Of a stretch of DNA of 22,092 bases, positions 4,927 to 22,092 are shown in pieces. The notes below the pieces were generated by a model. The model had not been told where the DNA came from, ran no database searches, and was given only the letters and a program-made list of their open reading frames with translations. Each line of letters begins with the position of its first letter. Positions within the stretch are counted from its first letter, which is position 1. This stretch comes from a virus, in the UHGV virus genome UHGV-0073665; one strand, 5' to 3'. The translations under genes and the position numbers were made by a program.

Positions 4927-5102
4927 TAGTGGCCTTTATTTTTGGCATAAATAACAGAATAAACACTGCACTGTGTATTCATTCCAACGAGTGAATACAC
5001 GGAGCAATGTCGCTCGTAACTAAACAGGAGCCGACTTGTTCTGATTGTTGGAAATCTTCTTTGCCCTCCAGTGTGAGGGCAATTTTTTTTGATGGAGGAT
5101 AT

Positions 5103-5453
5103 ATGAGTGAAGTAACAGATTTAGTTGTTATTGAAAAAGCAAATGCAATGACTGTATTTCAGTCTGCCGACCAGATTGAAGAAATTCTCCAAAAGGTTGA
5201 ACGTGAAGTTATGTCATTTGTGCCTGATATCACAACGGCAAAGGGCAGAAAGGAGATCGCTTCTCTGGCGTATAAAGTTGCGCAGACGAAAACATATCTC
5301 GATGGTCTTGGCAAAGACCTTGTTGCTGAACTGAAGGAAATTCCAAAGCTAATTGATGCCAACCGCAAGACAGTGCGCGATCGCCTTGATGAACTGAAAG
5401 CCAAGGCGCGCCAGCCTCTTACTGATTATGAGGAAGAATCAGGCGCGGATTAA
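5103..5453 (+). CDS. Hypothetical protein (116 aa from ATG 5103), possibly the N-terminal part of a split gene
   Basis: GGAGG lies 8 nt upstream of ATG 5103; the track start at 5007 is less likely. Occupies the position between ral and cIII. No family recognised. Confidence 0.5.
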   Translation: MSEVTDLVVIEKANAMTVFQSADQIEEILQKVEREVMSFVPDITTAKGRKEIASLAYKVAQTKTYLDGLGKDLVAELKEIPKLIDANRKTVRDRLDELKAKARQPLTDYEEESGAD

Positions 5454-6072
5454 AGCCGAAGAAGAAGCTAAGGCAGCAGCTGAAGCTCTCGCAAAGCAAA
5501 TTGAGTCTGACCATGAAATAGCGATTTTGATGGATCGCGAATTTGACCGCCAAAGAGAAGAGGCAAGACTCAAAGCGGAGCAGGAAAAGCGAGAGCATGA
5601 AGAACGATTAAAAAGAGAAGCTGAAGAGAAAGCCAGAGCAGAAGCCGAAGCAAAGGCAAAAGCCGAAATTGAAGCAGCAGCAAGGCGAGAAGCAGAAGCT
5701 AAGGCCGCAGCGGAACGTGCAGAGCGTGAACGCATTGAAGCCGAGCAACGAGCACAGCGCGAAGCAAAAGAGGCAGCAGAACGAGCTGAAAGAGAAAAGC
5801 AGGCAGCAATTGAAGCAGAACGCAGAAAAGCACAGGAGGAGGCTGAACGAATCCGTCGCGAGGCTGAAGCAAAAGAGCAAGCCAGAATAGCAGAAGAAAA
5901 AAGAATCAAGGACGAAGAAGAGCGTAGAGCAAAGGATAAAGCTCACCGGAAAGAAGTAAATAACAAAATACTTGCTGACCTTATCAAGGTTGGCGCATCA
6001 GAAGATGTTGCTAAAAATATCATAACAGCCATCGTAAAAGGCGAAGTATTCGCAACAAAAATAACCTACTAA
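5428..6072 (+). CDS. Hypothetical E/K/R/A-rich charged-helix protein (214 aa), possibly the C-terminal part of a split gene
   Basis: Long run of EAKAKAEIEAAARREAEAK-type heptads, then a short C-terminal segment. Overlaps the upstream ORF by 26 nt with no Shine-Dalgarno before its ATG. Confidence 0.45.
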   Translation: MRKNQARIKAEEEAKAAAEALAKQIESDHEIAILMDREFDRQREEARLKAEQEKREHEERLKREAEEKARAEAEAKAKAEIEAAARREAEAKAAAERAERERIEAEQRAQREAKEAAERAEREKQAAIEAERRKAQEEAERIRREAEAKEQARIAEEKRIKDEEERRAKDKAHRKEVNNKILADLIKVGASEDVAKNIITAIVKGEVFATKITY

Positions 6073-6096
6073 TAAAACCAACATAAGGAACCACCC

Positions 6097-6228
6097 ATGA
6101 TTTACGCAATCGCGGGAGGCGCTCGCATGGGTGCCTTCCAACTAAATGAATCTTTACTTGAACGAATCACCCGTAAATTACGTGACGGATGGAAAAGAGT
6201 TGAGGTCTTATTATGCGCAATGAAATAG
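6097..6228 (+). CDS. cIII: CIII-like protein (protease inhibitor that stabilises CII)
   Basis: 43-aa ORF with AAGGAA RBS. Contains ESLLERITRKLRDGWKR, which matches the central region of lambda CIII as I recall it. Confidence 0.6.
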   Translation: MIYAIAGGARMGAFQLNESLLERITRKLRDGWKRVEVLLCAMK

Positions 6229-8024: not shown

Positions 8025-8543
8025 ATGAAACAAATGTCACTAATTGAGATGGATGGTTTTCTGAAAGGTAAATGCATCCCAAGTGATTTAAAGGTTAACG
8101 AAACAAACGCTGAATACCTTGTCCGTAAGTTCGGTGAACTTGAATCAAAACTGGAAACGGCGTTGCGGGAGTGTAGTTCTGCTGGAATCACGATTGATAA
8201 CCTTGAGGCTAAATGCGCGAAGATGGCTGCTGAAAATACCTCACTTAAGCAATCTGAGAAGGAATTTAATGACTTTTGTCGTGAGGAGTTTAGCGAATGG
8301 GAAGATGATGTTACTGAAACCCCAGCCACCGATGCTTTTCTGGCTGAAGTGCGGGCGCAGGGGGTGGATGCTGCTATAGAAGCTGCAAAAAATCTGGTGG
8401 CCCAAGAATATGAGTATAAGGATTTCAAAGCGGCGCAGAGTGATTGCTGTATGCACCCTGGTTCAGACCTGGTAGGGAAGGTTGAAATGACTGAGTGGTT
8501 AGTTGACTTTGCTGCCCAGCTTCGCAAAGGAGGCAACCAGTGA
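8025..8543 (+). CDS. Hypothetical acidic early protein (172 aa from ATG 8025)
   Basis: GGAG lies 9 nt upstream of ATG 8025; the track start 8007 is GTG. Strongly acidic composition. Confidence 0.5.
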   Translation: MKQMSLIEMDGFLKGKCIPSDLKVNETNAEYLVRKFGELESKLETALRECSSAGITIDNLEAKCAKMAAENTSLKQSEKEFNDFCREEFSEWEDDVTETPATDAFLAEVRAQGVDAAIEAAKNLVAQEYEYKDFKAAQSDCCMHPGSDLVGKVEMTEWLVDFAAQLRKGGNQ

Positions 8544-8839
8544 CTGTATGTCTTATTGATAAACGTCGACGTGGGCAACAAATACCATCTGTTGAAATGC
8601 CGAATCACACATGGTTTTGCGTACTTGATATCGATGGTATGGATACGTTGGTTGACACTCGTCATTACTGCGATACCGCAACAGCTACTCCGGCGAAAGC
8701 AAAGAAAATGGCTGCTCTGATAGAAAACTGGACTCCACCTGATGGTTGGTGCAATGGGAATGATCGAGATTGGCACGAAAAAATGAAGGGCTATATCTGC
8801 GATTTTTTACGTAAATGCAACGGCTTCAGGGGGATGTGA
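8540..8839 (+). CDS. Hypothetical early protein (99 aa, GTG start)
   Basis: AAGGAGG lies 6 nt upstream of GTG 8540, which overlaps the upstream stop. Confidence 0.5.
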   Translation: MTVCLIDKRRRGQQIPSVEMPNHTWFCVLDIDGMDTLVDTRHYCDTATATPAKAKKMAALIENWTPPDGWCNGNDRDWHEKMKGYICDFLRKCNGFRGM

Positions 8840-8840
8840 T

Positions 8841-9413
8841 ATGACCAAAATTAACTATCAGGCACTGCGTGAGGCGGCAGAACGTGCAATTCCGGCAATG
8901 GAACGCCTGTTAATGTTGCCAGTTGATGATGATTTGTTAAGTGAACAGGAACTTAAGGATTACGGTGTGGATATTGATGCGCTCAACGCCTTCAAATTTC
9001 TGACCGGACCAGAAACCGTGCTGGCGCTGCTGGATGAACGGGAAAGAAACCAGCAATACATCAAACGCCGCGACCAGGAGAACGAGGAAATTGCGCTAAC
9101 GGTAGGGAAGCTGCGCGTTGAGCTGGAAGCTGCAGAGAAGCGCATTGCAGAACTGGAAGCCGAACCTGTAAGCCAAACTTACAAGTTGAACGAGCTGTCG
9201 GGCAACTATCCGGTAACTCCGGATGGTTGGATAAGCTGTAGTGAGCGAATGCCCGCTCAAGATGATTGGATTTTAATTTATTCAAAGCACGGCGAGTATA
9301 TGGCAGGACAGGTACAAGGGGAATACGTGGAGTTGAGCGACGGCACTTTATCGTGGTTAGGGAACGCCTTGTACTGGATGCCTCTACCGGAACCGCCGCA
9401 GGAGGTTAATTGA
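8841..9413 (+). CDS. Hypothetical early protein (190 aa) with central coiled-coil and Trp-rich C-terminal domain
   Basis: ATG 2 nt after the upstream stop. C-terminal ...PDGWISCSERMP...WMPLPEPP resembles phage DUF551-type domains; this is tentative. Confidence 0.5.
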   Translation: MTKINYQALREAAERAIPAMERLLMLPVDDDLLSEQELKDYGVDIDALNAFKFLTGPETVLALLDERERNQQYIKRRDQENEEIALTVGKLRVELEAAEKRIAELEAEPVSQTYKLNELSGNYPVTPDGWISCSERMPAQDDWILIYSKHGEYMAGQVQGEYVELSDGTLSWLGNALYWMPLPEPPQEVN

Positions 9414-9697
9414 TGGTCTCCTTCGCGAAATATACGATTATTGACTGGATAGCATTCATTCAGGTTTTGCTCATCTGGTTTTATATGGCTTACAGGAGTG
9501 GACAGTGGATTGTCAGTGTAGCCTGTAGCAATGGATGGCGTTGGTGGAACCGAAAGAATAAAAAAGCGCTGGCCTTGGCTTCGTTTTACGAAGCATTCAA
9601 TCTTAACAGTCTTCAGCCTGGTTCTGTCGTTGTAGTCACCACTCAAAGCGGCATGACGATACAAATTCACAAGCCAAAGGAGGAAGGTCGTGGCTAA
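9413..9697 (+). CDS. Hypothetical small protein with hydrophobic N-terminal segment (94 aa from ATG 9413)
   Basis: GGAGG lies 7 nt upstream; start overlaps the upstream stop. Hydrophobic stretch IIDWIAFIQVLLIWFYMAY. Confidence 0.4.
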   Translation: MVSFAKYTIIDWIAFIQVLLIWFYMAYRSGQWIVSVACSNGWRWWNRKNKKALALASFYEAFNLNSLQPGSVVVVTTQSGMTIQIHKPKEEGRG

Positions 9698-9971
9698 CCT
9701 GCAACTTGCCGTTAAAGGTGAATACTTCGATGCCATGATTCGCGGAGAGAAAACGGAAGAGTATCGCCTGTGTAATGACTACTGGAATAAGCGAATTATG
9801 TTCCGCGAGTATGACCGCCTGATTATCACAAAGGGATATCCGAAGCGCGACGATTCCAGCCGCAGAATTGACGTCCCGTATGACGGATATGAAATCAAGA
9901 CAATCACACATCCCCACTTCGGTGATAAACCGGTAAAGGTGTTCGCGATAAAGGTGAATATTGATGGCTAA
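9690..9971 (+). CDS. Hypothetical protein, possibly ASCH/PUA-like (93 aa, GTG start)
   Basis: AAGGAGG lies 6 nt upstream of GTG 9690. N-terminal pattern KGEYFDAMIRGEKTEEYR resembles ASCH-domain proteins; this is tentative. Confidence 0.45.
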   Translation: MANLQLAVKGEYFDAMIRGEKTEEYRLCNDYWNKRIMFREYDRLIITKGYPKRDDSSRRIDVPYDGYEIKTITHPHFGDKPVKVFAIKVNIDG

Positions 9972-10302
9972 ATCAGCAGCAGAGCGCAAAGCCGCTCAGA
10001 GAGCCAGACAAGCTGCATCTGGTGTGCGTAAACTGGAGATTGTGCTTGATGCTCAGGAAATTGAAATGCTGGAGCGTAACTGTGCCACGCGTCGCCCCGG
10101 GCGTGCGCCTTACGAATTTGGTGAGTATATTGCGTTACTTATCCGCCAGGATGATGCTCGCGTGCACGGGCGTATAAAATCGATCAGCAGAAAACGTTGC
10201 GGTAAGTGCGGCGAGAGAGTTCCTGTGAATTCATGCCCGTGTAATGGTGACTCGCAATGCTGGGTGACCAAAGGCTGGCATGAAACGAAATTAATATTGT
10301 GA
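9964..10302 (+). CDS. Hypothetical protein with C-terminal Cys-rich (zinc-ribbon-like) segment (112 aa)
   Basis: AAGGTGA lies 6 nt upstream of ATG 9964. C-terminus has CGKCG...CPCNGDSQCW. Last gene before the terminase; stop codon lies inside the 16-bp palindromic motif. Confidence 0.5.
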   Translation: MAKSAAERKAAQRARQAASGVRKLEIVLDAQEIEMLERNCATRRPGRAPYEFGEYIALLIRQDDARVHGRIKSISRKRCGKCGERVPVNSCPCNGDSQCWVTKGWHETKLIL

Positions 10303-10311
10303 CATGTCACG
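10296..10311. repeat. 16-bp motif ATTGTGACATGTCACG (core perfect palindrome GTGACATGTCAC), copy 1, immediately upstream of TerS
   Basis: An identical 16-mer recurs at 12513..12528, just after TerL. Confidence 0.7.
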
Positions 10312-10323
10312 AGTGGGTTATGC

Positions 10324-11016
10324 ATGATGAATTTGATGGTTTTGAATACTGCCGCCAACTATGGCGGCTTTATTTTGCATGGTACTATTACCACAACGGT
10401 AACTATTACCACGGTGGTTATGATGCCTGCTGAACCTAAAGCCTATAAACGCAAATCAACGCAATTTAAGCCACTAACAGCAATGCAGGAGGCTTATTGC
10501 CAGTCATACATCAAAACGCCTGAAAACCAGACTCAGGCAGCGATTAACGCAGGATTCTCCCCAAATACAGCGGCAGTTAAAGCCAGTCTCATGATGCGCG
10601 ATGAACGCATTCAAAAACGGATTGCCGAGCTGATGGAAGAGCGCAACAAACGAATGCGCGTCAGTGCTGATTACGTTCTCATGCGCCTGGTGGAGATCGA
10701 CCAGATGGACGTGATCGACATCCTCAACGACGATGGGAGCCTTAAGCCAATCCGCGAGTGGCCGAAAATCTGGCGCACTACGCTTAGTGGCTTTGATCTG
10801 TCATCGACCATCATGAACATGAACGAGGATTCGATAGAGACAATCCTCAAAAAAATTAAATGGCCTGACAAGGTGAAGAACCTCGAACTGATTGGTAAGC
10901 ACGTCGACGTCAACGCATTCAAAGAACGCCTGGATGTTAATGTGAATGTGACAATTGCTGATCGCATAGCGGCAGCCAGGAAGAGACTGAAAGAACGCCA
11001 GGATGGCAATCAGTGA
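10324..11016 (+). CDS. terS: Terminase small subunit (alternative start ATG 10420)
   Basis: Directly precedes and overlaps TerL. Region ...KAYKRKSTQFKPLTAMQEAYCQSYIKTPENQTQAAINAGFSPNTAAVKA... is typical of the HTH DNA-binding part of small terminases. The Thr/Ile-rich N-terminal extension from 10324 is odd, so the start is uncertain. Confidence 0.65.
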   Translation: MMNLMVLNTAANYGGFILHGTITTTVTITTVVMMPAEPKAYKRKSTQFKPLTAMQEAYCQSYIKTPENQTQAAINAGFSPNTAAVKASLMMRDERIQKRIAELMEERNKRMRVSADYVLMRLVEIDQMDVIDILNDDGSLKPIREWPKIWRTTLSGFDLSSTIMNMNEDSIETILKKIKWPDKVKNLELIGKHVDVNAFKERLDVNVNVTIADRIAAARKRLKERQDGNQ

Positions 11017-12488
11017 CAGATACAGCGTTATCTCCTGAAGAGCAGTTAATCGAGGATATTGCAGGGTTCACTCACGATCCGCTTGGCTATGCCCTCTATG
11101 CGTTCCCGTGGGGGGAAGAGGGTACTGAACTGGCACATGCCACCGGTCCACGTCAGTGGCAGGCCGATGCGTTCCGAGAGATACGTGATCACCTGCAGAA
11201 TCCAGAGACGCGATATCAGCCGCTTATGCTGGCACGTGCTTCTGGTCACGGTATTGGTAAATCCGCATTCATCTCAATGCTGATCAACTGGGGCATGTCC
11301 ACTTGCGAGGATTGTAAGGTCGTGGTGACCGCCAACACCGACAACCAGCTACGAACGAAGACCTGGCCGGAAATTATCAAGTGGTCAAACCTTGCTATCA
11401 CGAAAGACTGGTTTACCTGTACCGCTACCGCGATGTACAGCAATGACCCTGGGCACGACAAGCGGTGGCGAGCTGACGCAATCCCCTGGTCTGAGCACAA
11501 CACTGAGGCATTCGCCGGACTACACAACGAGCGTAAACGCATCATCGTGGTATTTGATGAAGCGTCGAACATTGCGGATCTGGTGTGGGAAGTTGCCGAG
11601 GGTGCGCTAACGGACGAAGACACTGAGATTATCTGGGTGGCTTTCGGAAACCCTACACGTAACACCGGGCGTTTCCGTGAATGTTTCCGCAAATACAAAC
11701 ACCGCTGGAAAACTGCGCAGATTGACAGCAGGACGGTGGAAGGCACCAACAAACAGCAGTTGCAGAAATGGGTTGATGACTATGGGGAAGATAGCGACTT
11801 CGTTAAAATCCGTGTGCGTGGCATATTCCCTGATGCATCTGAATTGCAGTTTATCCCTACCGGTCTTACTGACGAGGCAATGAAACGGGTGGTAACCGCT
11901 GCGCAGGTGGCACATGCTCCGGTGATAATCGGTGTTGACCCGGCATATTCAGGCGTTGATGACGCGGTGATATACCTGCGGCAGGGGCTACACAGTAAGG
12001 TGCTGTGGACTGGCAACAAGACTACCGACGATCTGATTATGGCGAAGCGTATCGCTGACTTTGAAGACCAGTATCAGGCTGACGCGGTGTTCATCGACTT
12101 CGGTTACGGAACCGGTTTGAAGTCAATCGGTGACGGCTGGGGTCGTACATGGCAACTTGTTCCGTTCGGTGGCGCGTCTACTGACCCGCAGATGCTCAAC
12201 AAGCGTGGGGAGATGTTCAACTCATGCAAGACATGGCTGAGGCTCGGCGGCATGCTGGATGACCAGGAAACAGCGGACGACCTGTCGACGGCAGAGTACA
12301 AAGTTCGCGTGGACGGTAAAATCGTTATCGAACCGAAGGAAGATATCAAAGAGCGACTTGGGCGTTCTCCTGGTAAAGGCGATGCGCTACTGCTGACGTT
12401 TGCGTTCCCTGTGTCGAAGCGTCTGCGAATTCCCGGGCAGCAGAACCAGCAAGGCAAAGCCATCACAGACTATGATCCTTTTGCATAA
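11013..12488 (+). CDS. terL: Terminase large subunit (ATPase plus nuclease), GTG start
   Basis: 491 aa. Walker A-like ARASGHGIGKS, Walker B-like IIVVFDEAS, and a C-terminal acidic nuclease-type region. Start overlaps the TerS stop. Confidence 0.88.
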   Translation: MTDTALSPEEQLIEDIAGFTHDPLGYALYAFPWGEEGTELAHATGPRQWQADAFREIRDHLQNPETRYQPLMLARASGHGIGKSAFISMLINWGMSTCEDCKVVVTANTDNQLRTKTWPEIIKWSNLAITKDWFTCTATAMYSNDPGHDKRWRADAIPWSEHNTEAFAGLHNERKRIIVVFDEASNIADLVWEVAEGALTDEDTEIIWVAFGNPTRNTGRFRECFRKYKHRWKTAQIDSRTVEGTNKQQLQKWVDDYGEDSDFVKIRVRGIFPDASELQFIPTGLTDEAMKRVVTAAQVAHAPVIIGVDPAYSGVDDAVIYLRQGLHSKVLWTGNKTTDDLIMAKRIADFEDQYQADAVFIDFGYGTGLKSIGDGWGRTWQLVPFGGASTDPQMLNKRGEMFNSCKTWLRLGGMLDDQETADDLSTAEYKVRVDGKIVIEPKEDIKERLGRSPGKGDALLLTFAFPVSKRLRIPGQQNQQGKAITDYDPFA

Positions 12489-12510
12489 AAAAGCCCGCGA
12501 ATCGGCGGGC
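12487..12510 (-). terminator. Intrinsic terminator oriented for minus-strand transcription (end of the 140-aa ORF unit)
   Basis: Hairpin GCCCGC-gaatcg-GCGGGC at 12493..12510, followed on the minus strand by TTTTTT (plus-strand AAAAAA at 12487..12492). No U-tract on the plus-strand side. Confidence 0.6.
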
Positions 12511-12512
12511 TG

Positions 12513-12528
12513 ATTGTGACATGTCACG
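12513..12528. repeat. 16-bp motif ATTGTGACATGTCACG, copy 2, immediately downstream of TerL
   Basis: Identical to copy 1 at 10296..10311. Confidence 0.7.
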
Positions 12529-12531
12529 GCG

Positions 12532-12954
12532 TTAGAAGGTTATTTTATCGAATGCGGCGTTGATTGCCTTGGCGTCCTGCTCAGCACCAACCACATCAAG
12601 TAAAGATCTTTTACTAAGCACTTCAGCCAGGCATTGTAACTTCATGTTGTATAAGTTTTCGCGCATGTAATCATCATCACTTTTTTCTTTGGCGTATACA
12701 GCGCGAGAAATATCAAACACATTGCCTTTTTCCATTTCAGTTTTCTGCGCTGAAATCCAGTCATGGCAAGTAACTCCTATTCCATGGTCATCGCTAAGCG
12801 TTAACCCGGCCAGTCCCTCACTCTGAATTACTTCGTAATGCATTTCATTACCAGCAAAAACGCCATAAAAAACGCAGTCTTCAGCCTGAACGATACGAGA
12901 ATATTTTAATGGCCATTCATTTAGATACTTAGCCAACATATCAATTGTTTTCAT
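12532..12954 (-). CDS. Hypothetical 140-aa protein on the opposite strand inside the structural module
   Basis: AAGGTGA lies 4 nt upstream of the ATG on the minus strand. Flanked by terminators. No family recognised. Confidence 0.65.
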   Translation of the reverse strand: MKTIDMLAKYLNEWPLKYSRIVQAEDCVFYGVFAGNEMHYEVIQSEGLAGLTLSDDHGIGVTCHDWISAQKTEMEKGNVFDISRAVYAKEKSDDDYMRENLYNMKLQCLAEVLSKRSLLDVVGAEQDAKAINAAFDKITF

Positions 12955-12965
12955 GATCTCACCTT

Positions 12966-12989
12966 AAAAAAATGCCCGGCGAACCGGGC
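12966..12989 (-). terminator. Intrinsic terminator or attenuator (minus strand): GCCCGG-UUCG-CCGGGC hairpin plus U7, directly abutting the RBS of the 140-aa ORF
   Basis: Plus strand shows aaaaaaa then GCCCGGcgaaCCGGGC; on the minus strand this is a hairpin followed by a U-run. Confidence 0.55.
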
Positions 12990-13065
12990 GAACTGGAAGC
13001 AATGAGTTATGCCTTCCGTGGCTGTACGGGTTTACAGCATGAAGTCATCGCAATGGCGTCCTGCT

Positions 13066-13109
13066 GTAAAAAGGGCGGTGATAGTCCTTCAAGGGAAACC
13101 ATCACCGCC
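13066..13109 (-). terminator. Probable intrinsic terminator for the tRNA transcript (minus strand)
   Basis: 9-bp stem GGCGGTGAT/ATCACCGCC at 13074..13109, followed on the minus strand by CTTTTT. Lies ~44 nt downstream of the tRNA 3' end. Confidence 0.5.
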
Positions 13110-13152
13110 AAGCACCTGGAACTTCTGGCATCACGGTCCTTAGGCGTGATTC

Positions 13153-13229
13153 TGGCGTGGCATGCAGGATTCGAACCTGCGACCAACCGCTTAGAAGGCG
13201 GTTGCTCTGTCCAACTGAGCTAATGCCAC
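13153..13229 (-). tRNA. tRNA-Arg (anticodon UCU), 77 nt with encoded CCA
   Basis: Reverse complement is GTGGCATTAGCTCAGTTGGACAGAGCAACCGCCTTCTAAGCGGTTGGTCGCAGGTTCGAATCCTGCATGCCACGCCA. Folds by hand into a cloverleaf: 7-bp acceptor stem, D-stem GCTC/GAGC, anticodon stem ACCGC/GCGGT with loop CTTCTAA, T-arm GCAGG-TTCGAAT-CCTGC. Confidence 0.9.
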
Positions 13230-13656
13230 AACGCTGAGAGCACTTAGCCTGTTAAGGCGCCACACTTTGTCGCGGCTCCATAAATGCTCTCATCGTTGTA
13301 CCCTCGTCTCTTCCGAGGCGTCACACCGAATCGCCGGGATGGTGAATCCCCGTGCGCGGAATAAAACCGCTCGACTTGCACATTCCGGCTACCTGGTTCG
13401 TTTGCCCGAGCAAGGGAGGGTGCCCCTTAAACGTATCCAGACCGCTATCGGCGCATGTGCCATACGCCGTACTGCTCAAAATAAAAGCTCACTCCACCTG
13501 TTTAATTTAACGACAAGCCAGTCAGGTTAGTAACCAGAATGAGCCCTTTGGTTACCTGAAAGGTAATAATTAACGCGTTAAATGTCAACCTTCTACGATA
13601 AATAAATCATATGTGGTTAAATTGGTAATAATTTAATTGCGTACGGAGTCATTGAT

Positions 13657-13863
13657 ATGTGCATGGGTAGCTCACCATCAGTGCCTGCAACACCAGAAGT
13701 TCAGGCAGCACCACAGGAGCAGGATGCCGCCGTTGTTGATGCCCGCGACGAAGAAACACGTCGCCGTCGCGCTGCTGCTGGTCGTAGTTCTACGCTGCTT
13801 ACCGGTTCTCAGGGCGACACATCAACCGCTAATACCAGCGGTAAAACGCTGCTTGGTCAGTAA
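13657..13863 (+). CDS. Possible small Ala/Arg-rich protein (68 aa) immediately upstream of portal
   Basis: GGAG lies 8 nt upstream of the ATG, in a context (CGGAGTCATTGA) duplicated before the portal start. Low-complexity composition, so it may be spurious. Confidence 0.35.
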   Translation: MCMGSSPSVPATPEVQAAPQEQDAAVVDARDEETRRRRAAAGRSSTLLTGSQGDTSTANTSGKTLLGQ

Positions 13864-13877
13864 CCGGAGTCATTGAA

Positions 13878-15571
13878 ATGGCGGAAACAACTAAAGAGCG
13901 ATTGAACAAACAGTTCGCACAACTTGAAAGCGAGCGTCAGTCGTTCGAGCCGCACTGGCGCGAGTTGAGTGATTACATCAACCCGCGTGGTTCCCGCTTT
14001 CTGACTTCTGAAGTCAACCGTAACGATCGACGCAATACACGCATTATTGATTCGACCGGGACTATGGCGGCGCGCACTCTCGCCAGCGGCATGATGTCAG
14101 GCATCACAAGCCCTGCGCGTCCGTGGTTTCGCCTGGCTACGCCAGATCCTGAAATGATGGATTATGGTCCTGTTAAGTTGTGGCTCGAGGCGGTGCAGAA
14201 CCGCATGAACGATATGTTCAATAAGTCGAATCTCTACCAGTCTCTTCCGCAGTTATACGGAAGCCTCGGCACATACAGCACTGGTGCAATGGCGGTGCTG
14301 GAGGATGACGAGGAATACCAGAACCCGGTGGATCTGCTGTTTGAAGAACTGGCAAAAAAGAAGCCCAACTCCTTTGCCGGGCGGCAGTACAAACTTTACA
14401 AGCTGGCCGCAGGCAAAACCGCAAAATCAATCCTCATTTCTTGCGGTGCGGGCTAAATAACGTCAGCGAATCCGTAAAAAGCATGTGGGAAAGCGGCACC
14501 TACGAGAAGTGGATTGAAGTGATGCATTCGGTTTACCCGAACATTGACCGCGATACATCGAAGCTGGATAGCAAGAACAAGCCATTCAAATCGGTTTATT
14601 ACGAGGTTGGTGGCGATAACGACAAGTTGTTGCGTGAGTCCGGATTCGATGAGTTTCCAATTATGGCTCCGCGCTGGGAAGTTAACGGCGAAGATGTTTA
14701 TGGATCATCATGCCCGGGTATGCTGGCGCTTGGACCTGTTAAGGCATTGCAGCTTCTCCAGAAGCGCAAGTCGCAGTTGATTGATAAAGCCACCAATCCG
14801 CCGATGGTTGCTCCGACTTCCCTCAAGAATCAGCGTGCCTCCCTTCTTCCTGGCGACATCACGTATATCGATCAGATTACTGGTCAGGATGGTTTCAGGC
14901 CTGCTTATCTGGTTAACCCCAGTACAGCAGATTTGGTGGCAGACATTCAGGACACTCGTCAAATCATTAACAGCGCCTACTTTGTCGATCTGTTCATGAT
15001 GTTGCAGAACATCAATACCCGCTCGATGCCTGTTGAAGCGGTGATCGAAATGAAAGAAGAAAAACTTCTGATGTTGGGGCCGGTTCTGGAGCGTCTGAAC
15101 GACGAATGTCTTAATCCTCTCATTGACCGCTCTTTCTCGATGATGGTGCGTAAAAACATGCTGCCGCCACCGCCAGACGTGATGGAAGGTATGCCCCTGA
15201 AGGTCGAATACATTTCCGTCATGGCTCAGGCGCAGAAGTCTATCGGCCTGTCCAGTCTGGCGTCCACGGTTAACTTCATTGGTCAACTTGCGCAAGCGAA
15301 ACCAGAAGCTCTCGACAAACTCAACGTTGATCAGGCGATCGATGCATTCGCTGATATGTCCGGAGTGTCTCCAACCGTCATTGTTCCGCAGGAACAGGTT
15401 GAGCAGGCTCGCCAGCAACGGGCACAGCAGCAACAGCAGCAACAAATGATGGCGATGGGGATGGCGGCGGCACAGGGTGCCAAGACGCTAAGCGAAGCTA
15501 AAACTTCGGATCCGAGTGTTTTGTCAGCTATGGCGAATGCAGTTAGTGGTCAGGGTGGGCAATCACAATGA
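13878..15571 (+). CDS. Portal protein (T7 gp8-like podovirus connector), reading frame interrupted: ORFs 13878..14456 and 14441..15571
   Basis: N-terminal and Q-rich C-terminal regions (...QQRAQQQQQQQMMAMGMAAAQG...) resemble T7 gp8 from memory. The second frame is open from 14345. The A6 run at 14354..14359 (A_AAA_AAG in the zero frame) lies in the overlap zone. Confidence 0.75.
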
Positions 15572-15864
15572 CAGATTACGAAGACGATCAACTGAAAGAA
15601 GAAAACGCCCGTAAGCAACGTGACATGGCACAGCGTGAAATTGATGACATTCGCTTTGTCATGAGCAGTGAACAGGGGCGTCGCGTTGTCTGGTCGGTGC
15701 TGGAGAAAGGCCGTGTGTTTTCCGCTATCTCACCGATGGACGCTATGGCAATGGCATTTAATGAGGGGCAACGCAATCTGGCGCTGGAACTGTTTCAGCG
15801 CGTTATGGCGCATTGTCCTGAACAGTATTTGAAGATGGCCAAAGAGGCCAGTGAACAGGAGTGA
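15568..15864 (+). CDS. Hypothetical 98-aa protein between portal and scaffold
   Basis: Start overlaps the portal stop (ATGA). No family recognised. Confidence 0.5.
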   Translation: MTDYEDDQLKEENARKQRDMAQREIDDIRFVMSSEQGRRVVWSVLEKGRVFSAISPMDAMAMAFNEGQRNLALELFQRVMAHCPEQYLKMAKEASEQE

Positions 15865-15866
15865 TC

Positions 15867-16562
15867 ATGAATTTATTTGAGCGTTTGCTGTATAGCCGTC
15901 TTTGCAATGAGCAACCAGTCGATGGTGGAGCAGCTCCGGCTGCGTCAGAACCGTCAGCGCCTGCAGGTGATAACCCTGCTCCAGTTGGTGATCCATCACA
16001 ACAGGAAGGTGATAAGCCACAACCTGTTGCTGATGGCGATAAACCTGCTGATGACAAAAAGCCTGAAAACGATAAGCAGGATGAAAAAAAGGACGGCGAT
16101 AAACCAGAGGGTGCGCCTGAGAAGTACGAGTTTCAGGCTGCCGAAGGCGTAGAGCTGGATACAGAAGCGTTGAAGGAATTCGAGCCGGTGGCGCGAGAAC
16201 TTAACCTGACCAACGAGCAAGCGCAAAAGCTGGTTGATGCTTATCCGAAGATTCTGGCAGGTGTTCAGCAGCGCCAGGCAGAAGCCTGGCAGAAAACAAC
16301 CGAGCAGTGGGCTGCGGATGTAAAAGCTGACAAAGAAATCGGTGGCGACAAGTTGATTTCTAACCTTAGCGCCGCACAGCGTGCGCTTGACCAGTTCGGG
16401 ACACCTGAACTCAAAGAATATCTGAACACCACCGGGCTGGGTAATCACCCTGATCTGGTCAAAACGTTCGTGAAAATCGGAAAGGCGATGTCTGAAGATG
16501 GCATGGTCACCGGTGGTAATGAAGGCCAGCGTAGTGCGGCCGAAGTGCTCTATGGCAAATAA
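15867..16562 (+). CDS. Putative scaffolding protein (acidic, 231 aa from ATG 15867)
   Basis: AGGAG lies 6 nt upstream of ATG 15867. Acidic, Pro/Asp/Lys-rich N-terminus and helical C-terminus. Position between portal and major capsid is as in T7 gp9. Confidence 0.55.
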   Translation: MNLFERLLYSRLCNEQPVDGGAAPAASEPSAPAGDNPAPVGDPSQQEGDKPQPVADGDKPADDKKPENDKQDEKKDGDKPEGAPEKYEFQAAEGVELDTEALKEFEPVARELNLTNEQAQKLVDAYPKILAGVQQRQAEAWQKTTEQWAADVKADKEIGGDKLISNLSAAQRALDQFGTPELKEYLNTTGLGNHPDLVKTFVKIGKAMSEDGMVTGGNEGQRSAAEVLYGK

Positions 16563-16576
16563 GAGAGGAAATGACA

Positions 16577-17563
16577 ATGGCTGTTAAAGGCTTAACTGCG
16601 CTAACGCTGGCTGACTGGGGTAAGCGCGTCGATAAAAACGGGAAAGTCGATAAGATTATCGAGCTTCTCGGTCAAACTAACCCGATCCTTCAGGATATGC
16701 CTTTTGTCGAAGGGAACCTTCCTACCGGACACCGAACCACCATTCGTTCTGGTTTACCTTCAGCCACCTGGCGTTTGCTGAACTATGGCGTACAGCCAAG
16801 CAAATCAACCACAGTGCAGGTCACCGATTCCGTTGGAATGCTGGAAACCTATGCTGAAGTCGATAAGTCACTGGCTGATCTGAACGGTAATACCGCCGAA
16901 TTCCGCCTGTCTGAAGACCGCGCATTTATTGAAGCGATGAATCAGCAGATGGCGCAGACGCTGTTTTATGGTGATTCCAGCGTTAACCCTCAGCAGTTTA
17001 TGGGACTGTCCTCCCGCTATTCCAGCCTGTCTGCAGGTAATGCTCAGAACATCATTGATGCTGGTGGCACGGGTACAGATAACACCTCAATCTGGTTAGT
17101 GGTGTGGGGCGAAAACACAGTGCATGGCATCTTCCCGAAAGGGCAGAAGGCTGGCATTCAGATGGAAGATAAAGGCCAGGTGACACTGGAAGATGCTAAT
17201 GGCGGCAAGTACGAAGGCTACCGTACCCATTACAAATGGGACAACGGACTTGCTCTGCGTGACTGGCGTTATGTTGTTCGCATTGCAAACATCGATGTCA
17301 GCAATCTTTCAGAACCTTCCTCTGCCGCAAATATTGCGAAGTTGATGGTTAAAGCACTGCATCGCATTCCAAATCGTGGCATGGGTCGCCCGGTGTTCTA
17401 CATGAACCGCACTGTAGGCCAGGCTCTTGATCTGCAATCTCTGGAGAAAACATCTCTGGCGATCAGCGTAAAAGAGACAGAAGGCGAGTGGTGGACTTCA
17501 TTCCGTGGTGTACCAATCCGTGAAACTGATGCGCTTCTGGAAACAGAAGCCCGCGTGGTGTAA
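16577..17563 (+). CDS. Major capsid protein (alternative start 16571)
   Basis: ~328 aa, directly after the scaffold, with GAGG 8 nt upstream of ATG 16577. Followed by small virion genes and a terminator. Call is mainly by position and size. Confidence 0.65.
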   Translation: MAVKGLTALTLADWGKRVDKNGKVDKIIELLGQTNPILQDMPFVEGNLPTGHRTTIRSGLPSATWRLLNYGVQPSKSTTVQVTDSVGMLETYAEVDKSLADLNGNTAEFRLSEDRAFIEAMNQQMAQTLFYGDSSVNPQQFMGLSSRYSSLSAGNAQNIIDAGGTGTDNTSIWLVVWGENTVHGIFPKGQKAGIQMEDKGQVTLEDANGGKYEGYRTHYKWDNGLALRDWRYVVRIANIDVSNLSEPSSAANIAKLMVKALHRIPNRGMGRPVFYMNRTVGQALDLQSLEKTSLAISVKETEGEWWTSFRGVPIRETDALLETEARVV

Positions 17564-17614
17564 CGCCTGTTATTAACCTGTGGGTCGTAACAGACCCACT
17601 AATGGAGAAAGAAG

Positions 17615-18052
17615 ATGATCACCGACAAACTGTTGATGTTCTCCGAAGCTCAGGCGGTTACGAATACCGCGGCTTCTACTGACGTAATCGATCTCGGTCC
17701 AATTGACGGAAAACGTCGTGATATCGGCGTGGGTTACCCGCTTGAGTTTTGGGCGCTGGTTAACACAGCCGCCGCGGCAAGCGGTGATGCAACTGTAAAC
17801 ATCCAGTTGCAGACGAGTGAGAATAACAGCTCATGGACCACTATTTATGATAGTGGCGCACTGGCAAAGACCGCCCTGACAGCAGGTAAACGAGTTGTTT
17901 CTGCAAAGGTGCCTGCCGGTGTTCAGCGATATCTGCGTGTTAACTACTCCGTCGCAACTGGCCCACTAACGGCTGGCGAATTCACTGCTGGTATCAGTCT
18001 TGATGTTGATGCCAATACGCCGTATCCGATCCTCTCAAAAGTAACTGGTTAA
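17615..18052 (+). CDS. Hypothetical virion-associated protein (145 aa)
   Basis: In the structural operon after the major capsid gene. Confidence 0.5.
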   Translation: MITDKLLMFSEAQAVTNTAASTDVIDLGPIDGKRRDIGVGYPLEFWALVNTAAAASGDATVNIQLQTSENNSSWTTIYDSGALAKTALTAGKRVVSAKVPAGVQRYLRVNYSVATGPLTAGEFTAGISLDVDANTPYPILSKVTG

Positions 18053-18053
18053 G

Positions 18054-18398
18054 GTGATATCGATGTCAGGTGAGAAACCAAGATACCGCGTTCTGCGCCT
18101 CTCTCATATCCATAACACTCTGTGGCCGGAGGGGGCAGAAATCGAATACGAAGGTGAGCCTGGTAGCGCACTGGAACCTGTTAACGATGCAGCCAGACAG
18201 GCAAAAGCAAAGGTAGCAGGAAAGGTGTCTATGGCAGCAACCAGCACCAAAATCATCAACGATGTGTCAGATGATGGTGAACTGGATAAGCTCCGTGAAG
18301 AGTACGAATTGCTCTTTAACGAGAAGCCACACCATAACGCCAAAGCCGAAACGCTCCGCGAGAAGATCGCAGATAAGCGTAAAGAACTGGGCGTGTAA
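18054..18398 (+). CDS. Hypothetical protein (114 aa)
   Basis: Start 2 nt after the upstream stop. Followed by a terminator. Confidence 0.5.
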   Translation: MISMSGEKPRYRVLRLSHIHNTLWPEGAEIEYEGEPGSALEPVNDAARQAKAKVAGKVSMAATSTKIINDVSDDGELDKLREEYELLFNEKPHHNAKAETLREKIADKRKELGV

Positions 18399-18415
18399 GC
18401 CTCGCGGATCAGACA

Positions 18416-18436
18416 AGGGGCTTCGGCCCCTTTATT
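18416..18436 (+). terminator. Rho-independent terminator (GGGGC-UUCG-GCCCC plus UUUAUU) after the capsid gene cluster
   Basis: Stable tetraloop hairpin followed by a T-run on the plus strand. Confidence 0.65.
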
Positions 18437-18448
18437 GCAGGAGTGTAT

Positions 18449-18772
18449 ATGGAACTCGTAAACCTCAAAACCGGCACTGACAGCTACCAGGATGAGAGCG
18501 GAGAAACCAGAACTCGCGATGAATACCCGTGGGGGCTGTGCATCACTCTTAATAACGACACATTGAATAAGCTGAAGGCGCAACCTAAGGGCGTCGGAAC
18601 GGAAGTGATGATAACTGCAAAGGCTGTTATTCGAGGCCTGTCTGCCAGAGAAACTAACGATGGCGTTAATCGCAGCGCCGATCTGCAGATCACTGATATG
18701 GCGATCGCTCCTGTTTCCGGGGATGTAGAAAAATCAGCGGCTGAAACTCTGTACGGTAACGGAGGTGAGTGA
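18449..18772 (+). CDS. Hypothetical structural protein (107 aa from ATG 18449)
   Basis: AGGAG lies 6 nt upstream of ATG 18449; the track start 18443 is GTG. Confidence 0.45.
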   Translation: MELVNLKTGTDSYQDESGETRTRDEYPWGLCITLNNDTLNKLKAQPKGVGTEVMITAKAVIRGLSARETNDGVNRSADLQITDMAIAPVSGDVEKSAAETLYGNGGE

Positions 18773-19377
18773 TGGCCTCTGTAGTAGAGATCTGTAATCG
18801 TGCGCTGTCCAATATTGGCAACAGCCGCAGCATTAACAGCCTGACGGAAGCCAGCAAGGAAGCGGGGGAATGTTCGCTGCACTTTGAGGCCTGTCGTGAT
18901 GCTGTGCTTTCTGATTTTGACTGGAACTTTGCTACCAAACGCGTGGCGCTTGCAGATACGAGCAATCCACCGCCTGACTGGGAATATGCGTACCAGTACC
19001 CGTCAGATTGTCTGCGCATTACTGAAATTATGCTTCCTGGTGTACGCAATCCAACAGCAGCAATGCGCGTTCAGTACGAAGTTGGTGCAGACACCAACGG
19101 AACAGGAAAGTTGATCTACACAGACCAGCCTCAGGCATGGCTCAAGTATGTCTCTCGCGTTACAGATGTGAACATGTTTGATGCCATTTTTATGGAGGCG
19201 TTGGCCTGGCGTCTTGCGGCAGCTATTAACATGGCGCTGACTGGGAATGCAGACCTCGGTACGTTTGCCCTCAATATGTACAATCGCGTGATTCTTAGTG
19301 CTGGCTCGCATAGCCAGAATGAATCACAGGAACCACAGCCACCGGTTGATGAGTTTACCATTGCGAGGTTGTCCTGA
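18772..19377 (+). CDS. Putative tail tubular protein A (T7 gp11-like), by size and position
   Basis: ~201 aa, immediately upstream of an ~820-aa gene, as for T7 gp11 and gp12. GGAGGTGA RBS. Sequence resemblance to gp11 is weak from memory. Confidence 0.45.
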   Translation: MASVVEICNRALSNIGNSRSINSLTEASKEAGECSLHFEACRDAVLSDFDWNFATKRVALADTSNPPPDWEYAYQYPSDCLRITEIMLPGVRNPTAAMRVQYEVGADTNGTGKLIYTDQPQAWLKYVSRVTDVNMFDAIFMEALAWRLAAAINMALTGNADLGTFALNMYNRVILSAGSHSQNESQEPQPPVDEFTIARLS

Positions 19378-21848
19378 TGGCTATCAGTTGGATCCAGCCC
19401 AGCTTTGCCGGTGGTGAGATTGGACCGTCGTTGTACGGGCGTATTGACATGGCGAAGTACCAGGTAGCATTGCGCAAGTGCGATAACTTTATCGTGCGGC
19501 AGTATGGCGGCGTTGAGAATCGACCTGGTACGCGTTTTGTCGGTGCCGCCAAATACCCAAATCGGAAATGCCGCCTGATCCCGTTCCAATTCTCGACGGT
19601 TCAGACTTATGCTCTGGAGTTCGGACACCAGTACATGCGCGTTATCAAAGATGGTGCGTTGGTGCTGAACAGCAGCAATGTTATTTATGAAATTGCCACG
19701 CCATATACTGAAGCCGATCTGTTCCGAATTAAATTCACGCAAAGCGCCGACGTGCTTACGCTGGTTCACCCGGCATACCCGCCGAAAGAGCTGCGCCGCT
19801 ATGCGCATGACAACTGGCAACTGGTTGATGTGGTAACGAAGAACGGGCCATTTGAAGATATCAATATTGATGAGTCAGTGACGGTTTATGCCAGCGCCAG
19901 CACCGGGACAATTACGTTAACGGCAAGCGCCTCTATTTTTGGCGCGGAGCAGGTAGGCAAATTGTTCTATCTGGAACAGCCTGCAGTGGATTCTGTGCCG
20001 GTATGGGAAACCAGTAAGAGTACGTCGATTGGCGATATTCGCCGTGCAGACAGTAACTACTATCGCGCCGTTACAGCAGGCAAAACAGGCACTTTGCGCC
20101 CTTCGCATACAGAAGGCACATCATGGGATGGCTGGGGCGGATCCGGTGATGATGATACTGGCATTGAGTGGGAGTATCTGCACAGTGGTTTTGGCATTGC
20201 CCGTATAACTGCTGTAAATGGCACTACTGCAACTGCTGAGGTGATTTCCTATATCCCTTCGCAGGTCGTTGGCGAGGATAATGCCAGCTATAAATGGGCT
20301 AAATATGCCTGGAACAGTGTTAACGGTTATCCTGGCACGGTTGTTTATTATCAACAACGTCTTTACTTCGCCGCATCGACAGCGTTCCCTCAGACTATCT
20401 GGGCCAGCCGTACTGGGGATTATAAGGATTTTGGCAAAAGCAATCCTACGCAGGATGACGACAGAATTATCTACACCTATGCCGGGCGTCAGGTTAATGA
20501 GATCCGCCACCTGATTGATGTCGGTTCGCTGGTGGCACTGACTTCCGGAGGTGAGTACGTCATCACCGGCGACCAGAACAAAGTATTAACTCCATCATCA
20601 TTTGCATTCAGCTCTCAGGGATCAAATGGTTCGAGCAATGTCCCACCAATTGCCGTGGCGAATATTGCTCTGTTCGTCCAGGAGAAAGGCAGTGTTGTCC
20701 GTGATCTGGCCTACTCATTCGATGTTGACGGCTATCAGGGGAACGACCTTACTATCCTTGCCAATCATCTTTTTCAGAAGCACAGCATTGTTGACTGGTG
20801 CTTCTCTATTGTCCCTTACTCCAGCGCCTTCTGCATTCGTGATGACGGTAAATTACTGGTGATGACCTATTTGCGTGATCAACAGGTTTTTGCATGGGCA
20901 CCACAGTCCAGTACCGGAAAATATGAAAGCACATGCAGTATCAGCGAAGGCAATGAAGATGCGGTGTATTTCGTCATTAACCGAACCGTTAACGGGCAAA
21001 CAGTGAGATACATCGAGCGACTGTCCAGCCGTTTATTTACCAGCGATGAAGATGCTTTCTTTGTTGATTCTGGCCTTAGCTATGATGGAAGAAATACGTC
21101 TGACAGAACGATGACCATCACTGGTGGTTCTGGTGAATGGGATTACCGTGCGGAATATACAATCAGTGTTTCTGGTGGTGCGTACTTCACCAGTAGTGAT
21201 GTCGGCGCGCAACTACAGTTCCCTTATACCGGAACTGATCCTGATACTGGCGATGAAGTGTCAAAAGAATTACGTTGCGACATTATTTCTGTAACCAGCA
21301 ATACCGCTGTAGTGGTTCGTGCTAACAGGAACGTCCCGCCATCCCTCAGGAATGTGGCCACCACGAACTGGCAGATGGCGCGCCGGACATTTGGAGGCCT
21401 GTCTCATCTTGAAGGCCAGACCGTAAACATTCTCTCTGATGCGAACGTGGAACCACAGAAAGTGGTTTCCGGAGGTGCCGTCACGCTGGAATCTCCGGGG
21501 GCTGTAGTGCACATCGGCCTGCCAATAACTGCTGAATTCGAAACACTGGATATCAACATTAACGGACAGGAAACGCTGCTGGACAAAAAACAGGTGATCC
21601 CCTCCGTTACTCTGGTTGTGAATGCCAGTCGCGGCATCTGGGCGACTACGCCCGGCGGTAAATGGTACGAATATCCACAGCGTGAATTCGAGTTCTACGA
21701 TGATCCTGTTGATGATGCTACCGGAAAAGTAGAAGTGAAACTGGACAGTAACTGGGGCAAAAACGGACGTGTAAAAATCCGTCAGCTTGATCCGTTGCCG
21801 CGGTCTGTTCTTGCCGTTATTCCTCGCCTTACTGTTGGGGGATTCTGA
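19377..21848 (+). CDS. Putative tail tubular protein B (T7 gp12-like) or other large tail component
   Basis: 823 aa, start overlapping the upstream stop. Size and position match T7 gp12. N-terminus MAISWIQPSFAGGEIGPSLYGR loosely resembles the gp12 N-terminus. Confidence 0.55.
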   Translation: MAISWIQPSFAGGEIGPSLYGRIDMAKYQVALRKCDNFIVRQYGGVENRPGTRFVGAAKYPNRKCRLIPFQFSTVQTYALEFGHQYMRVIKDGALVLNSSNVIYEIATPYTEADLFRIKFTQSADVLTLVHPAYPPKELRRYAHDNWQLVDVVTKNGPFEDINIDESVTVYASASTGTITLTASASIFGAEQVGKLFYLEQPAVDSVPVWETSKSTSIGDIRRADSNYYRAVTAGKTGTLRPSHTEGTSWDGWGGSGDDDTGIEWEYLHSGFGIARITAVNGTTATAEVISYIPSQVVGEDNASYKWAKYAWNSVNGYPGTVVYYQQRLYFAASTAFPQTIWASRTGDYKDFGKSNPTQDDDRIIYTYAGRQVNEIRHLIDVGSLVALTSGGEYVITGDQNKVLTPSSFAFSSQGSNGSSNVPPIAVANIALFVQEKGSVVRDLAYSFDVDGYQGNDLTILANHLFQKHSIVDWCFSIVPYSSAFCIRDDGKLLVMTYLRDQQVFAWAPQSSTGKYESTCSISEGNEDAVYFVINRTVNGQTVRYIERLSSRLFTSDEDAFFVDSGLSYDGRNTSDRTMTITGGSGEWDYRAEYTISVSGGAYFTSSDVGAQLQFPYTGTDPDTGDEVSKELRCDIISVTSNTAVVVRANRNVPPSLRNVATTNWQMARRTFGGLSHLEGQTVNILSDANVEPQKVVSGGAVTLESPGAVVHIGLPITAEFETLDININGQETLLDKKQVIPSVTLVVNASRGIWATTPGGKWYEYPQREFEFYDDPVDDATGKVEVKLDSNWGKNGRVKIRQLDPLPRSVLAVIPRLTVGGF

Positions 21849-22092
21849 TGATCGATGTTCAAATTATTCCCGCAACCGAAGAGCATCTTCAGATGATTTT
21901 GCCGGATGTTCGTCAGGCTGATATTGACGAACTGTATGCGGTATCACTGATGACTACCGAAGATGCGCTGCGTGTTGGTCTGCGTACTGCGACTATGGCC
22001 TGGTCAGGGTTCGCGAACGGAGAACTGGTAACCATGTTTGGCGTATCTCCGGCGTCAATGATCGGTGGCAATGGTACGCCCTGGCTGGTCGG
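21848..22092 (+). CDS. Hypothetical protein, 5' part only (continues beyond the window end)
   Basis: ATG overlaps the upstream stop. Frame is open to the window end (MIDVQIIPATEEHLQMILPDVRQADIDELYAV...). Confidence 0.4.
   Translation, partial: MIDVQIIPATEEHLQMILPDVRQADIDELYAVSLMTTEDALRVGLRTATMAWSGFANGELVTMFGVSPASMIGGNGTPWLV

Follow-up and report, generated by a model that had tools for sequence, protein, structure and literature searches.

What does the pair of overlapping reading frames at positions 5103 to 6072 of the virus genome UHGV-0073665 represent, two genes or a single gene that has been broken? For this window, as we call the whole stretch of 22,092 nt that was analyzed, a sequence-only reading had left the choice between one gene with a frameshift, which together with the portal would suggest prophage decay or systematic indel errors, and a translationally coupled pair. 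Our analysis makes it very probable that the two frames are one accessory gene of the early left operon of a lambdoid/P22-like prophage, split after the 112th of its 322 codons by the insertion of a single base, T5439. This degree of confidence is meant for the account as a whole; the frameshift itself meets no contrary evidence, and the functional part is weak.

The split gene and the extra T at 5439

All parts of the disrupted gene lie on the plus strand, where it spans 970 nt (5103..6072); it is orthologous to gene 33 of Sf6 and homologous to agt of phi80 and orf53 of D3. Its first frame, ORF1 (5103..5453), runs from ATG 5103 to the stop codon TAA at 5451..5453 and encodes 116 aa, namely the native residues 1-112 followed by the out-of-frame residues SGAD. 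Its start is served by a Shine-Dalgarno sequence, GGAGGA (5092..5097, plus strand), with the ATG six bases after. A mechanical list of open reading frames gives ORF1 a longer 5' end, starting at ATG 5007 and encoding 148 aa. We take this start to be spurious and the one at 5103 to be real, because the extension crosses a terminator-like hairpin followed by eight T residues (5061..5090, plus strand), which is located just upstream of the gene and is equivalent to tL2A of Sf6. The second frame, ORF2 (5428..6072; 214 aa), lies in the +1 frame and opens at ATG 5428, 23 nt ahead of the stop codon of ORF1, with the non-native residues MRKN, after which it continues with the native residues 113-322. 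The two frames thus overlap by 26 nt (5428..5453), in agreement with what had been read from the sequence, and the absence of a Shine-Dalgarno sequence before ORF2 is likewise borne out, as none at a usable distance is found in the 25 nt preceding ATG 5428 (AAGGCGCGCCAGCCTCTTACTGATT).

In an alignment with five relatives, the length difference at the junction comes down to one column, T5439 (plus strand), which is inserted between codons 112 and 113 in the context GAAGAA-T-CAGGCG and is missing in Sf6, HK544, HF4s, Huey and phiv205-1. When this T is deleted in silico, the two frames merge into a protein of 322 aa that reads identically to Sf6 gp33. The corresponding stretch is a single CDS of 969 nt in Sf6, HK544, HF4s, Huey and APC_JM3.2; the copy in phiv205-1 has no T5439, yet carries a stop codon of its own. 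Over 1,101 bp around the locus, the identity of the window is 100% with CUS-3 and 98-99% with many phages of the lambdoid and P22-like types. Of the possibilities initially raised, it is therefore the frameshifted single gene that holds, as one T splits what is one 969-nt ORF in relatives. The single-ORF form, sought among homologues, was found in all that were examined outside the CUS-3-like lineages, and two-gene homologues with the same overlap, which would have spoken for separate genes, were not encountered.

The locus at 5103..6072 has no match in Rfam, and the DNA of the charged region described below shows only a weak, imperfect periodicity of 6 and 15 nt, with no contingency repeat. 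Opposite this region, two antisense ORFs of 156 and 112 aa (5439..5946, minus strand) encode products rich in Ser, Ala, Leu, Phe and Cys; we read them as by-products of a sense strand rich in GAA, GCA and AAG, and not as genes.

Family and architecture of the intact protein

To which family does the gene belong? In PHROGs, it matches the full-length family phrog_1376 (E = 2e-110), and the fused protein, from which the T has been removed, has full-length counterparts in Sf6 gp33 and phi80 Agt. PHROGs also contains two small families, phrog_17211 and phrog_21365, that match the two halves exactly; the split allele is clustered there as though it were two genes. An exhaustive search with ORF1 returned 4,881 cluster representatives at E <= 0.001, 3,303 of them at E <= 1e-10. 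Among the best 150 of the 4,881, the median length is 329 aa, 122 have at least 270 aa, and the N-terminal domain always falls within the first ~145 residues. It is from this search that the full-length form emerged; a separate homologue search with ORF1 gave nothing longer than 199 aa, its hits being short or partial proteins.

In eight phages of gamma- and alpha-proteobacteria (with Shigella, E. coli, Klebsiella, Edwardsiella, Vibrio, Pseudomonas, Sinorhizobium and Acinetobacter as hosts), the gene is without exception a single ORF, of 308-354 aa and with the same three-part layout. An N-terminal domain of ~110 aa has the invariant residues D42, T45, K47-G48-R49, K63 and G70-K71, all of which are present in the window copy. 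It is followed by a charged helix and by a conserved C-terminal module of about the last 45 residues (~278-322; coding part 5935..6069, plus strand) in which His281 and Leu293 are invariant and which ends in I-x-Y/F. From this layout, one ORF of ~300-360 aa, the window copy departs as it stands and conforms exactly once T5439 is taken out. It is a disrupted member, a pseudogene, of the Sf6 gp33 / phi80 Agt / D3 Orf53 family, PHROG 1376.

The nearest intact relative is Sf6 gp33 (AAQ12223.1; the gene also occurs in HK544, HF4s, IME10, mEp043 and Huey), with which the repaired protein is identical over all 322 aa. In Sf6 the gene has the same neighbors, with ral upstream and cIII, kil and erf downstream, but gene 33 is unsplit there and an extra gene 34 lies between it and ral. 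A more distant relative, Agt/Mog of phi80 (PHI80_40, AFV29176.1), likewise has 322 aa and is 49% identical from end to end (E = 2e-47); it shares the three-part layout and the place at the head of the recombination genes. While agt is directly followed by gamL in phi80, GamL is missing from the window, where an Abc2 of the P22 type (PF11043) is encoded five genes downstream instead. Beyond the PHROG family, the repaired protein has no match in Pfam (E <= 1) or NCBIfam, and a hit to the PADLOC model LmuB (E = 0.03) was rejected as an artefact of the coiled region. Neither a Foldseek comparison of the N-domain model with the PDB nor a profile search of PDB sequences gave anything better than E = 0.2.

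What would the intact protein look like? Modeled separately with AlphaFold2, ORF1 (26-sequence alignment; pLDDT 88) shows helices at residues 12-20, 22-38 and 46-114, and ORF2 (pLDDT 90) one helix over its residues 2-187 and a short one at 192-204. Joined, these models suggest a helix of ~250 residues, ~37 nm in length, in the intact protein, and they place the break inside this predicted long helix, just past the conserved sequence block. The charged stretch noted in the sequence-only reading corresponds to residues 153-285 of the repaired protein (5560..5958, plus strand), 86% of which are E, K, R or A. Only 7% are hydrophobic and no heptad seam is apparent; pairs of opposite charge at i/i+4 number 53, as compared to 24.1 +/- 3.8 in shuffled sequences. 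Composition, charge pattern and predicted helix together bear the signature of a single alpha-helix of the ER/K type and not that of a coiled coil. Thus, of the two structures proposed for this stretch, the single helix gains support from the charge pairs and the uninterrupted predicted helix, whereas the coiled coil is disfavored by the missing heptad seam.

ER/K single alpha-helix (SAH) domains occur in myosin VI and X and in caldesmon. The phage segment resembles them in being rich in E, K and R and poor in hydrophobic residues, in its enrichment in i/i+4 pairs and in the single helix predicted for it; there is no homology, however, but only a shared physical principle, and the monomeric state is a prediction here. 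A second resemblance has found its way into databases. RefSeq names this gene TolA, and the long helical region rich in Ala, Glu, Lys and Arg does resemble TolA domain II, by composition only. Two of the three defining features of TolA fail. In place of a membrane anchor, residues 1-45 are frequently charged, contain no hydrophobic run of 15 residues or more and are modeled as short soluble helices, and for the C-terminal domain III neither Pfam (E <= 1) nor NCBIfam gave a match. Moreover, unlike TolA, the family is encoded in a phage recombination region. We regard the TolA identity as a composition artefact and the label as misleading.

Could the break have been turned to use, with both halves made by coupling or re-initiation as separate subunits, or with the N-terminal domain alone sufficing? 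It does fall just past the conserved N-terminal block, the conservation of which ends near ...PLT-x-WE at residues 105-110; there is an in-frame ATG inside the overlap; and the allele is long-lived in a widespread lineage, CUS-3 being viable. Still, we hold such a functional split to be very unlikely. ORF2 has no ribosome-binding site and its ATG is not adjacent to the stop codon of ORF1, and since the predicted helix crosses the break (H46-114 in ORF1, H2-187 in ORF2), no structural domain boundary coincides with it. In every homologue the N- and C-terminal modules are physically joined; a size befitting the N-domain only is seen in just three of the 150 best representatives, and the short hits of the other ORF1 search are mostly labelled partial. 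Furthermore, sister prophages carry a second, clearly inactivating allele, with a stop at codon 30. That a successful clonal lineage has kept the split allele fits with neutrality and is no proof of a loss of function. As the homologues are single ORFs, a translationally coupled pair in the sense of an evolved two-gene arrangement can be rejected.

An inherited mutation common to CUS-3 and E. coli K1 genomes

Having settled on a disrupted gene, one has to ask whether the disruption occurred in the organism or in the course of sequencing. An identical stretch of 1,101 bp that includes T5439 is found in CUS-3 and in at least 37 complete, independently assembled E. coli genomes, among them UTI89, IHE3034, NU14, UM146, APEC O18, PMV-1 and BEN2908, with isolates of human, chicken/avian and CSF origin among the carriers. 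With a 61-nt probe centered on T5439, we located the site in 443 E. coli records, of which 38, all of them from complete E. coli genomes, match exactly and 405 lack the T. The exact 214-aa product of ORF2 is indexed in 716 blocks of an assembly collection, and its surroundings were of the CUS-3 type in 24 of 24 contigs read. These occurrences show T5439 to be a real, inherited mutation that CUS-3 shares with dozens of genomes of E. coli K1. CUS-3 and the UTI89 locus UTI89_RS13095 carry the same allele, with 100% identical DNA over 5000..6100 including the T, and differ in annotation only. Where the GenBank record of CUS-3 has two hypothetical proteins (ECRS218_0048 and ECRS218_0049), RefSeq treats the same 970 nt as one pseudogene, "cell envelope biogenesis protein TolA, frameshifted". 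A frameshift pseudogene is ordinary, and this one is already annotated publicly; its recognition corrects a two-gene call to one pseudogene with a biological, not a technical lesion, and is of little importance for the window itself.

There is accordingly hardly any room for the idea, raised as systematic indel errors, that the gene is in reality intact and the extra T an error of sequencing or assembly. It could draw on the second broken gene in the window, the portal, and on the fact that no complete E. coli genome contains the whole window. But the T recurs in CUS-3, in many genomes and in the 716 blocks, and it is located outside any homopolymer run, so that an error is excluded for practical purposes. 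The portal lesion, for its part, is an event of another kind. The portal gene (13878..15571) is split into 13878..14456 and 14441..15571 by a patch of 131 nt (14315..14445), in place of which the portal of IHE3034, otherwise near-identical, has 117 nt of unrelated sequence. The patch is foreign: a search of 5,426 complete E. coli genomes gave no match, and its identity to MT836864.1, an unannotated phage contig from human feces, is 93.9%. As the portal was broken by a 131-nt replacement and not by a 1-nt indel, the two broken genes point to no common cause. Between the terminase and portal genes lies a tRNA gene (13156..13229, minus strand; Rfam, 73 bits), a tRNA-Arg in the IHE3034 annotation.

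The window as a whole is a mosaic. Its segment 4926..9100 is 99.93% identical to CUS-3, from which it diverges left of 4926 and right of ~9100; over 8316..22092 the match is to a second prophage of IHE3034, of the epsilon15/phiV10-like type, and the immunity region to the left of 4926 corresponds to neither CUS-3 nor that prophage. In the junction zone (8316..9100), the CUS-3-like early left operon runs into the terminase and head genes of the IHE3034-type prophage, with no integrase or attachment site between the two parts. In IHE3034, the two parent prophages lie ~150 kb apart in opposite orientation, and the overlap segment is present in both. The mosaic is possibly the result of a recombination or inversion between prophages, or else an assembly chimera.

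We give just as little credit to a recoding event, programmed +1 ribosomal frameshifting or transcriptional slippage, that restores the full-length protein, which we regard as extremely improbable. The frames do share 26 nt and could be rejoined by a +1 shift at any point in 5428..5450, but 5428..5453 contains no known +1 motif, none of the P-site codons of GAT TAT GAG GAA GAA TCA GGC GCG GAT TAA can re-pair in the +1 frame, an internal Shine-Dalgarno stimulator is absent, as is a run of A or T for slippage, the 100 nt of RNA downstream fold no better than shuffles (z = 0.24), and the arrangement is unconserved, being absent in 405 of 443 E. coli records and in all other phages examined. With the T confined to one lineage and with neither motif nor RNA fold, programmed frameshifting is rejected, and comparison with a prfB-type gene fails on motif, stimulator and conservation among homologues alike.

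Position, probable role and dispensability

What can be said about the role of the intact protein? In the window, the genes follow one another in the order SieB, Ral, split gene, cIII, kil, erf, SSB-like and abc2, while lambda has sieB, ral, ea10, cIII and kil. The sequence-only reading was thus right in placing the gene where lambda has ea10, between ral and cIII. The likeness ends with the slot, as Ea10 has 122 aa as opposed to 322 aa and shows no sequence similarity; homology to it was discarded on a BLASTP E value of 1.6. The homologues of SieB (PF14163; 3931..4512, minus strand) and Ral (PF11058; 4726..4926) are encoded immediately upstream, and a gene for a 140-aa protein that CUS-3 and Sf6 (gene 34) have between ral and this gene is absent in the window.

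Another constant is what lies downstream. In seven of the eight phages, the gene is located directly, or by a few small genes, upstream of recombination genes. It directly precedes GamL-Bet/RecT-Exo in phi80 and the Klebsiella phage ST101-KPC2phi6.1, Erf-Exo in Pseudomonas D3 and Sinorhizobium phiLM21, and RecT-Exo in Acinetobacter phi5013-M1; in Sf6, GF-2 and the window, it is followed by cIII and a few small genes (including Kil in Sf6 and the window) and then by Erf-SSB. The early-operon place upstream of genes for annealing protein, exonuclease or anti-RecBCD protein is therefore also that of the window copy. The sole function claimed for any member is the suppression of GamL toxicity, and it stands at the level of annotation: the GenBank record of phi80 (JX871397) describes agt as "anti-toxin for Gam; Mog (modifier of Gam)" and gamL as "toxic without Mog". 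As the anti-RecBCD gene of the window is a P22-type abc2 (PF11043, E = 4e-62) and gamL is absent, a role as a Gam-specific antitoxin is inapplicable in this phage, and the synteny with varied recombination genes supports a link to recombination that is broader than Gam alone. We infer that the intact protein is a dispensable modulator or tether of recombination and anti-RecBCD functions, in which two small domains would be joined by a long ER/K single alpha-helix.

That the gene can be spared is apparent from the phages themselves. CUS-3, which carries the same split allele, plates on E. coli EV36 (PMC10461980). An independent nonsense allele of the same gene, in which codon 30 has changed from CAA to TAA (L003 1691..1693 in phiv205-1, corresponding to 5190..5192 of the window), is found in phiv205-1 and in eight genomes of avian-pathogenic E. 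coli, IMT5155 and DE17 among them; in DE17, RefSeq records an "internal stop". Since CUS-3 forms plaques with the split allele and a sister lineage has independently acquired the stop at codon 30, the gene is apparently dispensable for plaque formation. The notion of prophage decay is thereby narrowed to one accessory gene that has become a pseudogene, in a phage type that, to judge from CUS-3, still forms plaques.

What, then, would the split entail? With its normal ribosome-binding site, ORF1 probably gives rise to a 116-aa fragment consisting of the conserved N-terminal domain and SGAD. The remaining 210 codons, for the rest of the helix and the C-terminal module, would give little or no product, and what there is would come from weak re-initiation at ATG 5428. 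The genes beyond the break, cIII, kil, erf and abc2, should still be expressed, because transcription from pL is N-antiterminated and polarity thereby suppressed, and the loss of a dispensable modulator would be tolerated in the window phage.

A further-reaching scenario, which we put forward as a tentative and rather unlikely one, is that the intact family constitutes a general component of recombination modules, its ~37-nm helix serving as a spacer between an N-terminal and a C-terminal binding module that tethers or restrains annealing, exonuclease or anti-RecBCD proteins, and that the two independent knock-outs in K1 ExPEC/APEC prophages reflect selection against it in lysogens and not neutral decay. 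If this were true, the family would be more than a Gam-specific antitoxin. Irrespective of this scenario, the intact family is very common in phages throughout the proteobacteria, where it stands at the head of recombination modules, with thousands of members, no Pfam model and no solved structure, and its predicted single-helix architecture and one annotation-level functional claim make it a reasonable experimental target. In a single E. coli genome, a 111-aa protein (P0017) consists of the first ~87 residues of the N-terminal domain followed by the C-terminal portion of an anti-RecBCD protein of the Abc2 type (PF11043); it is a natural deletion product.
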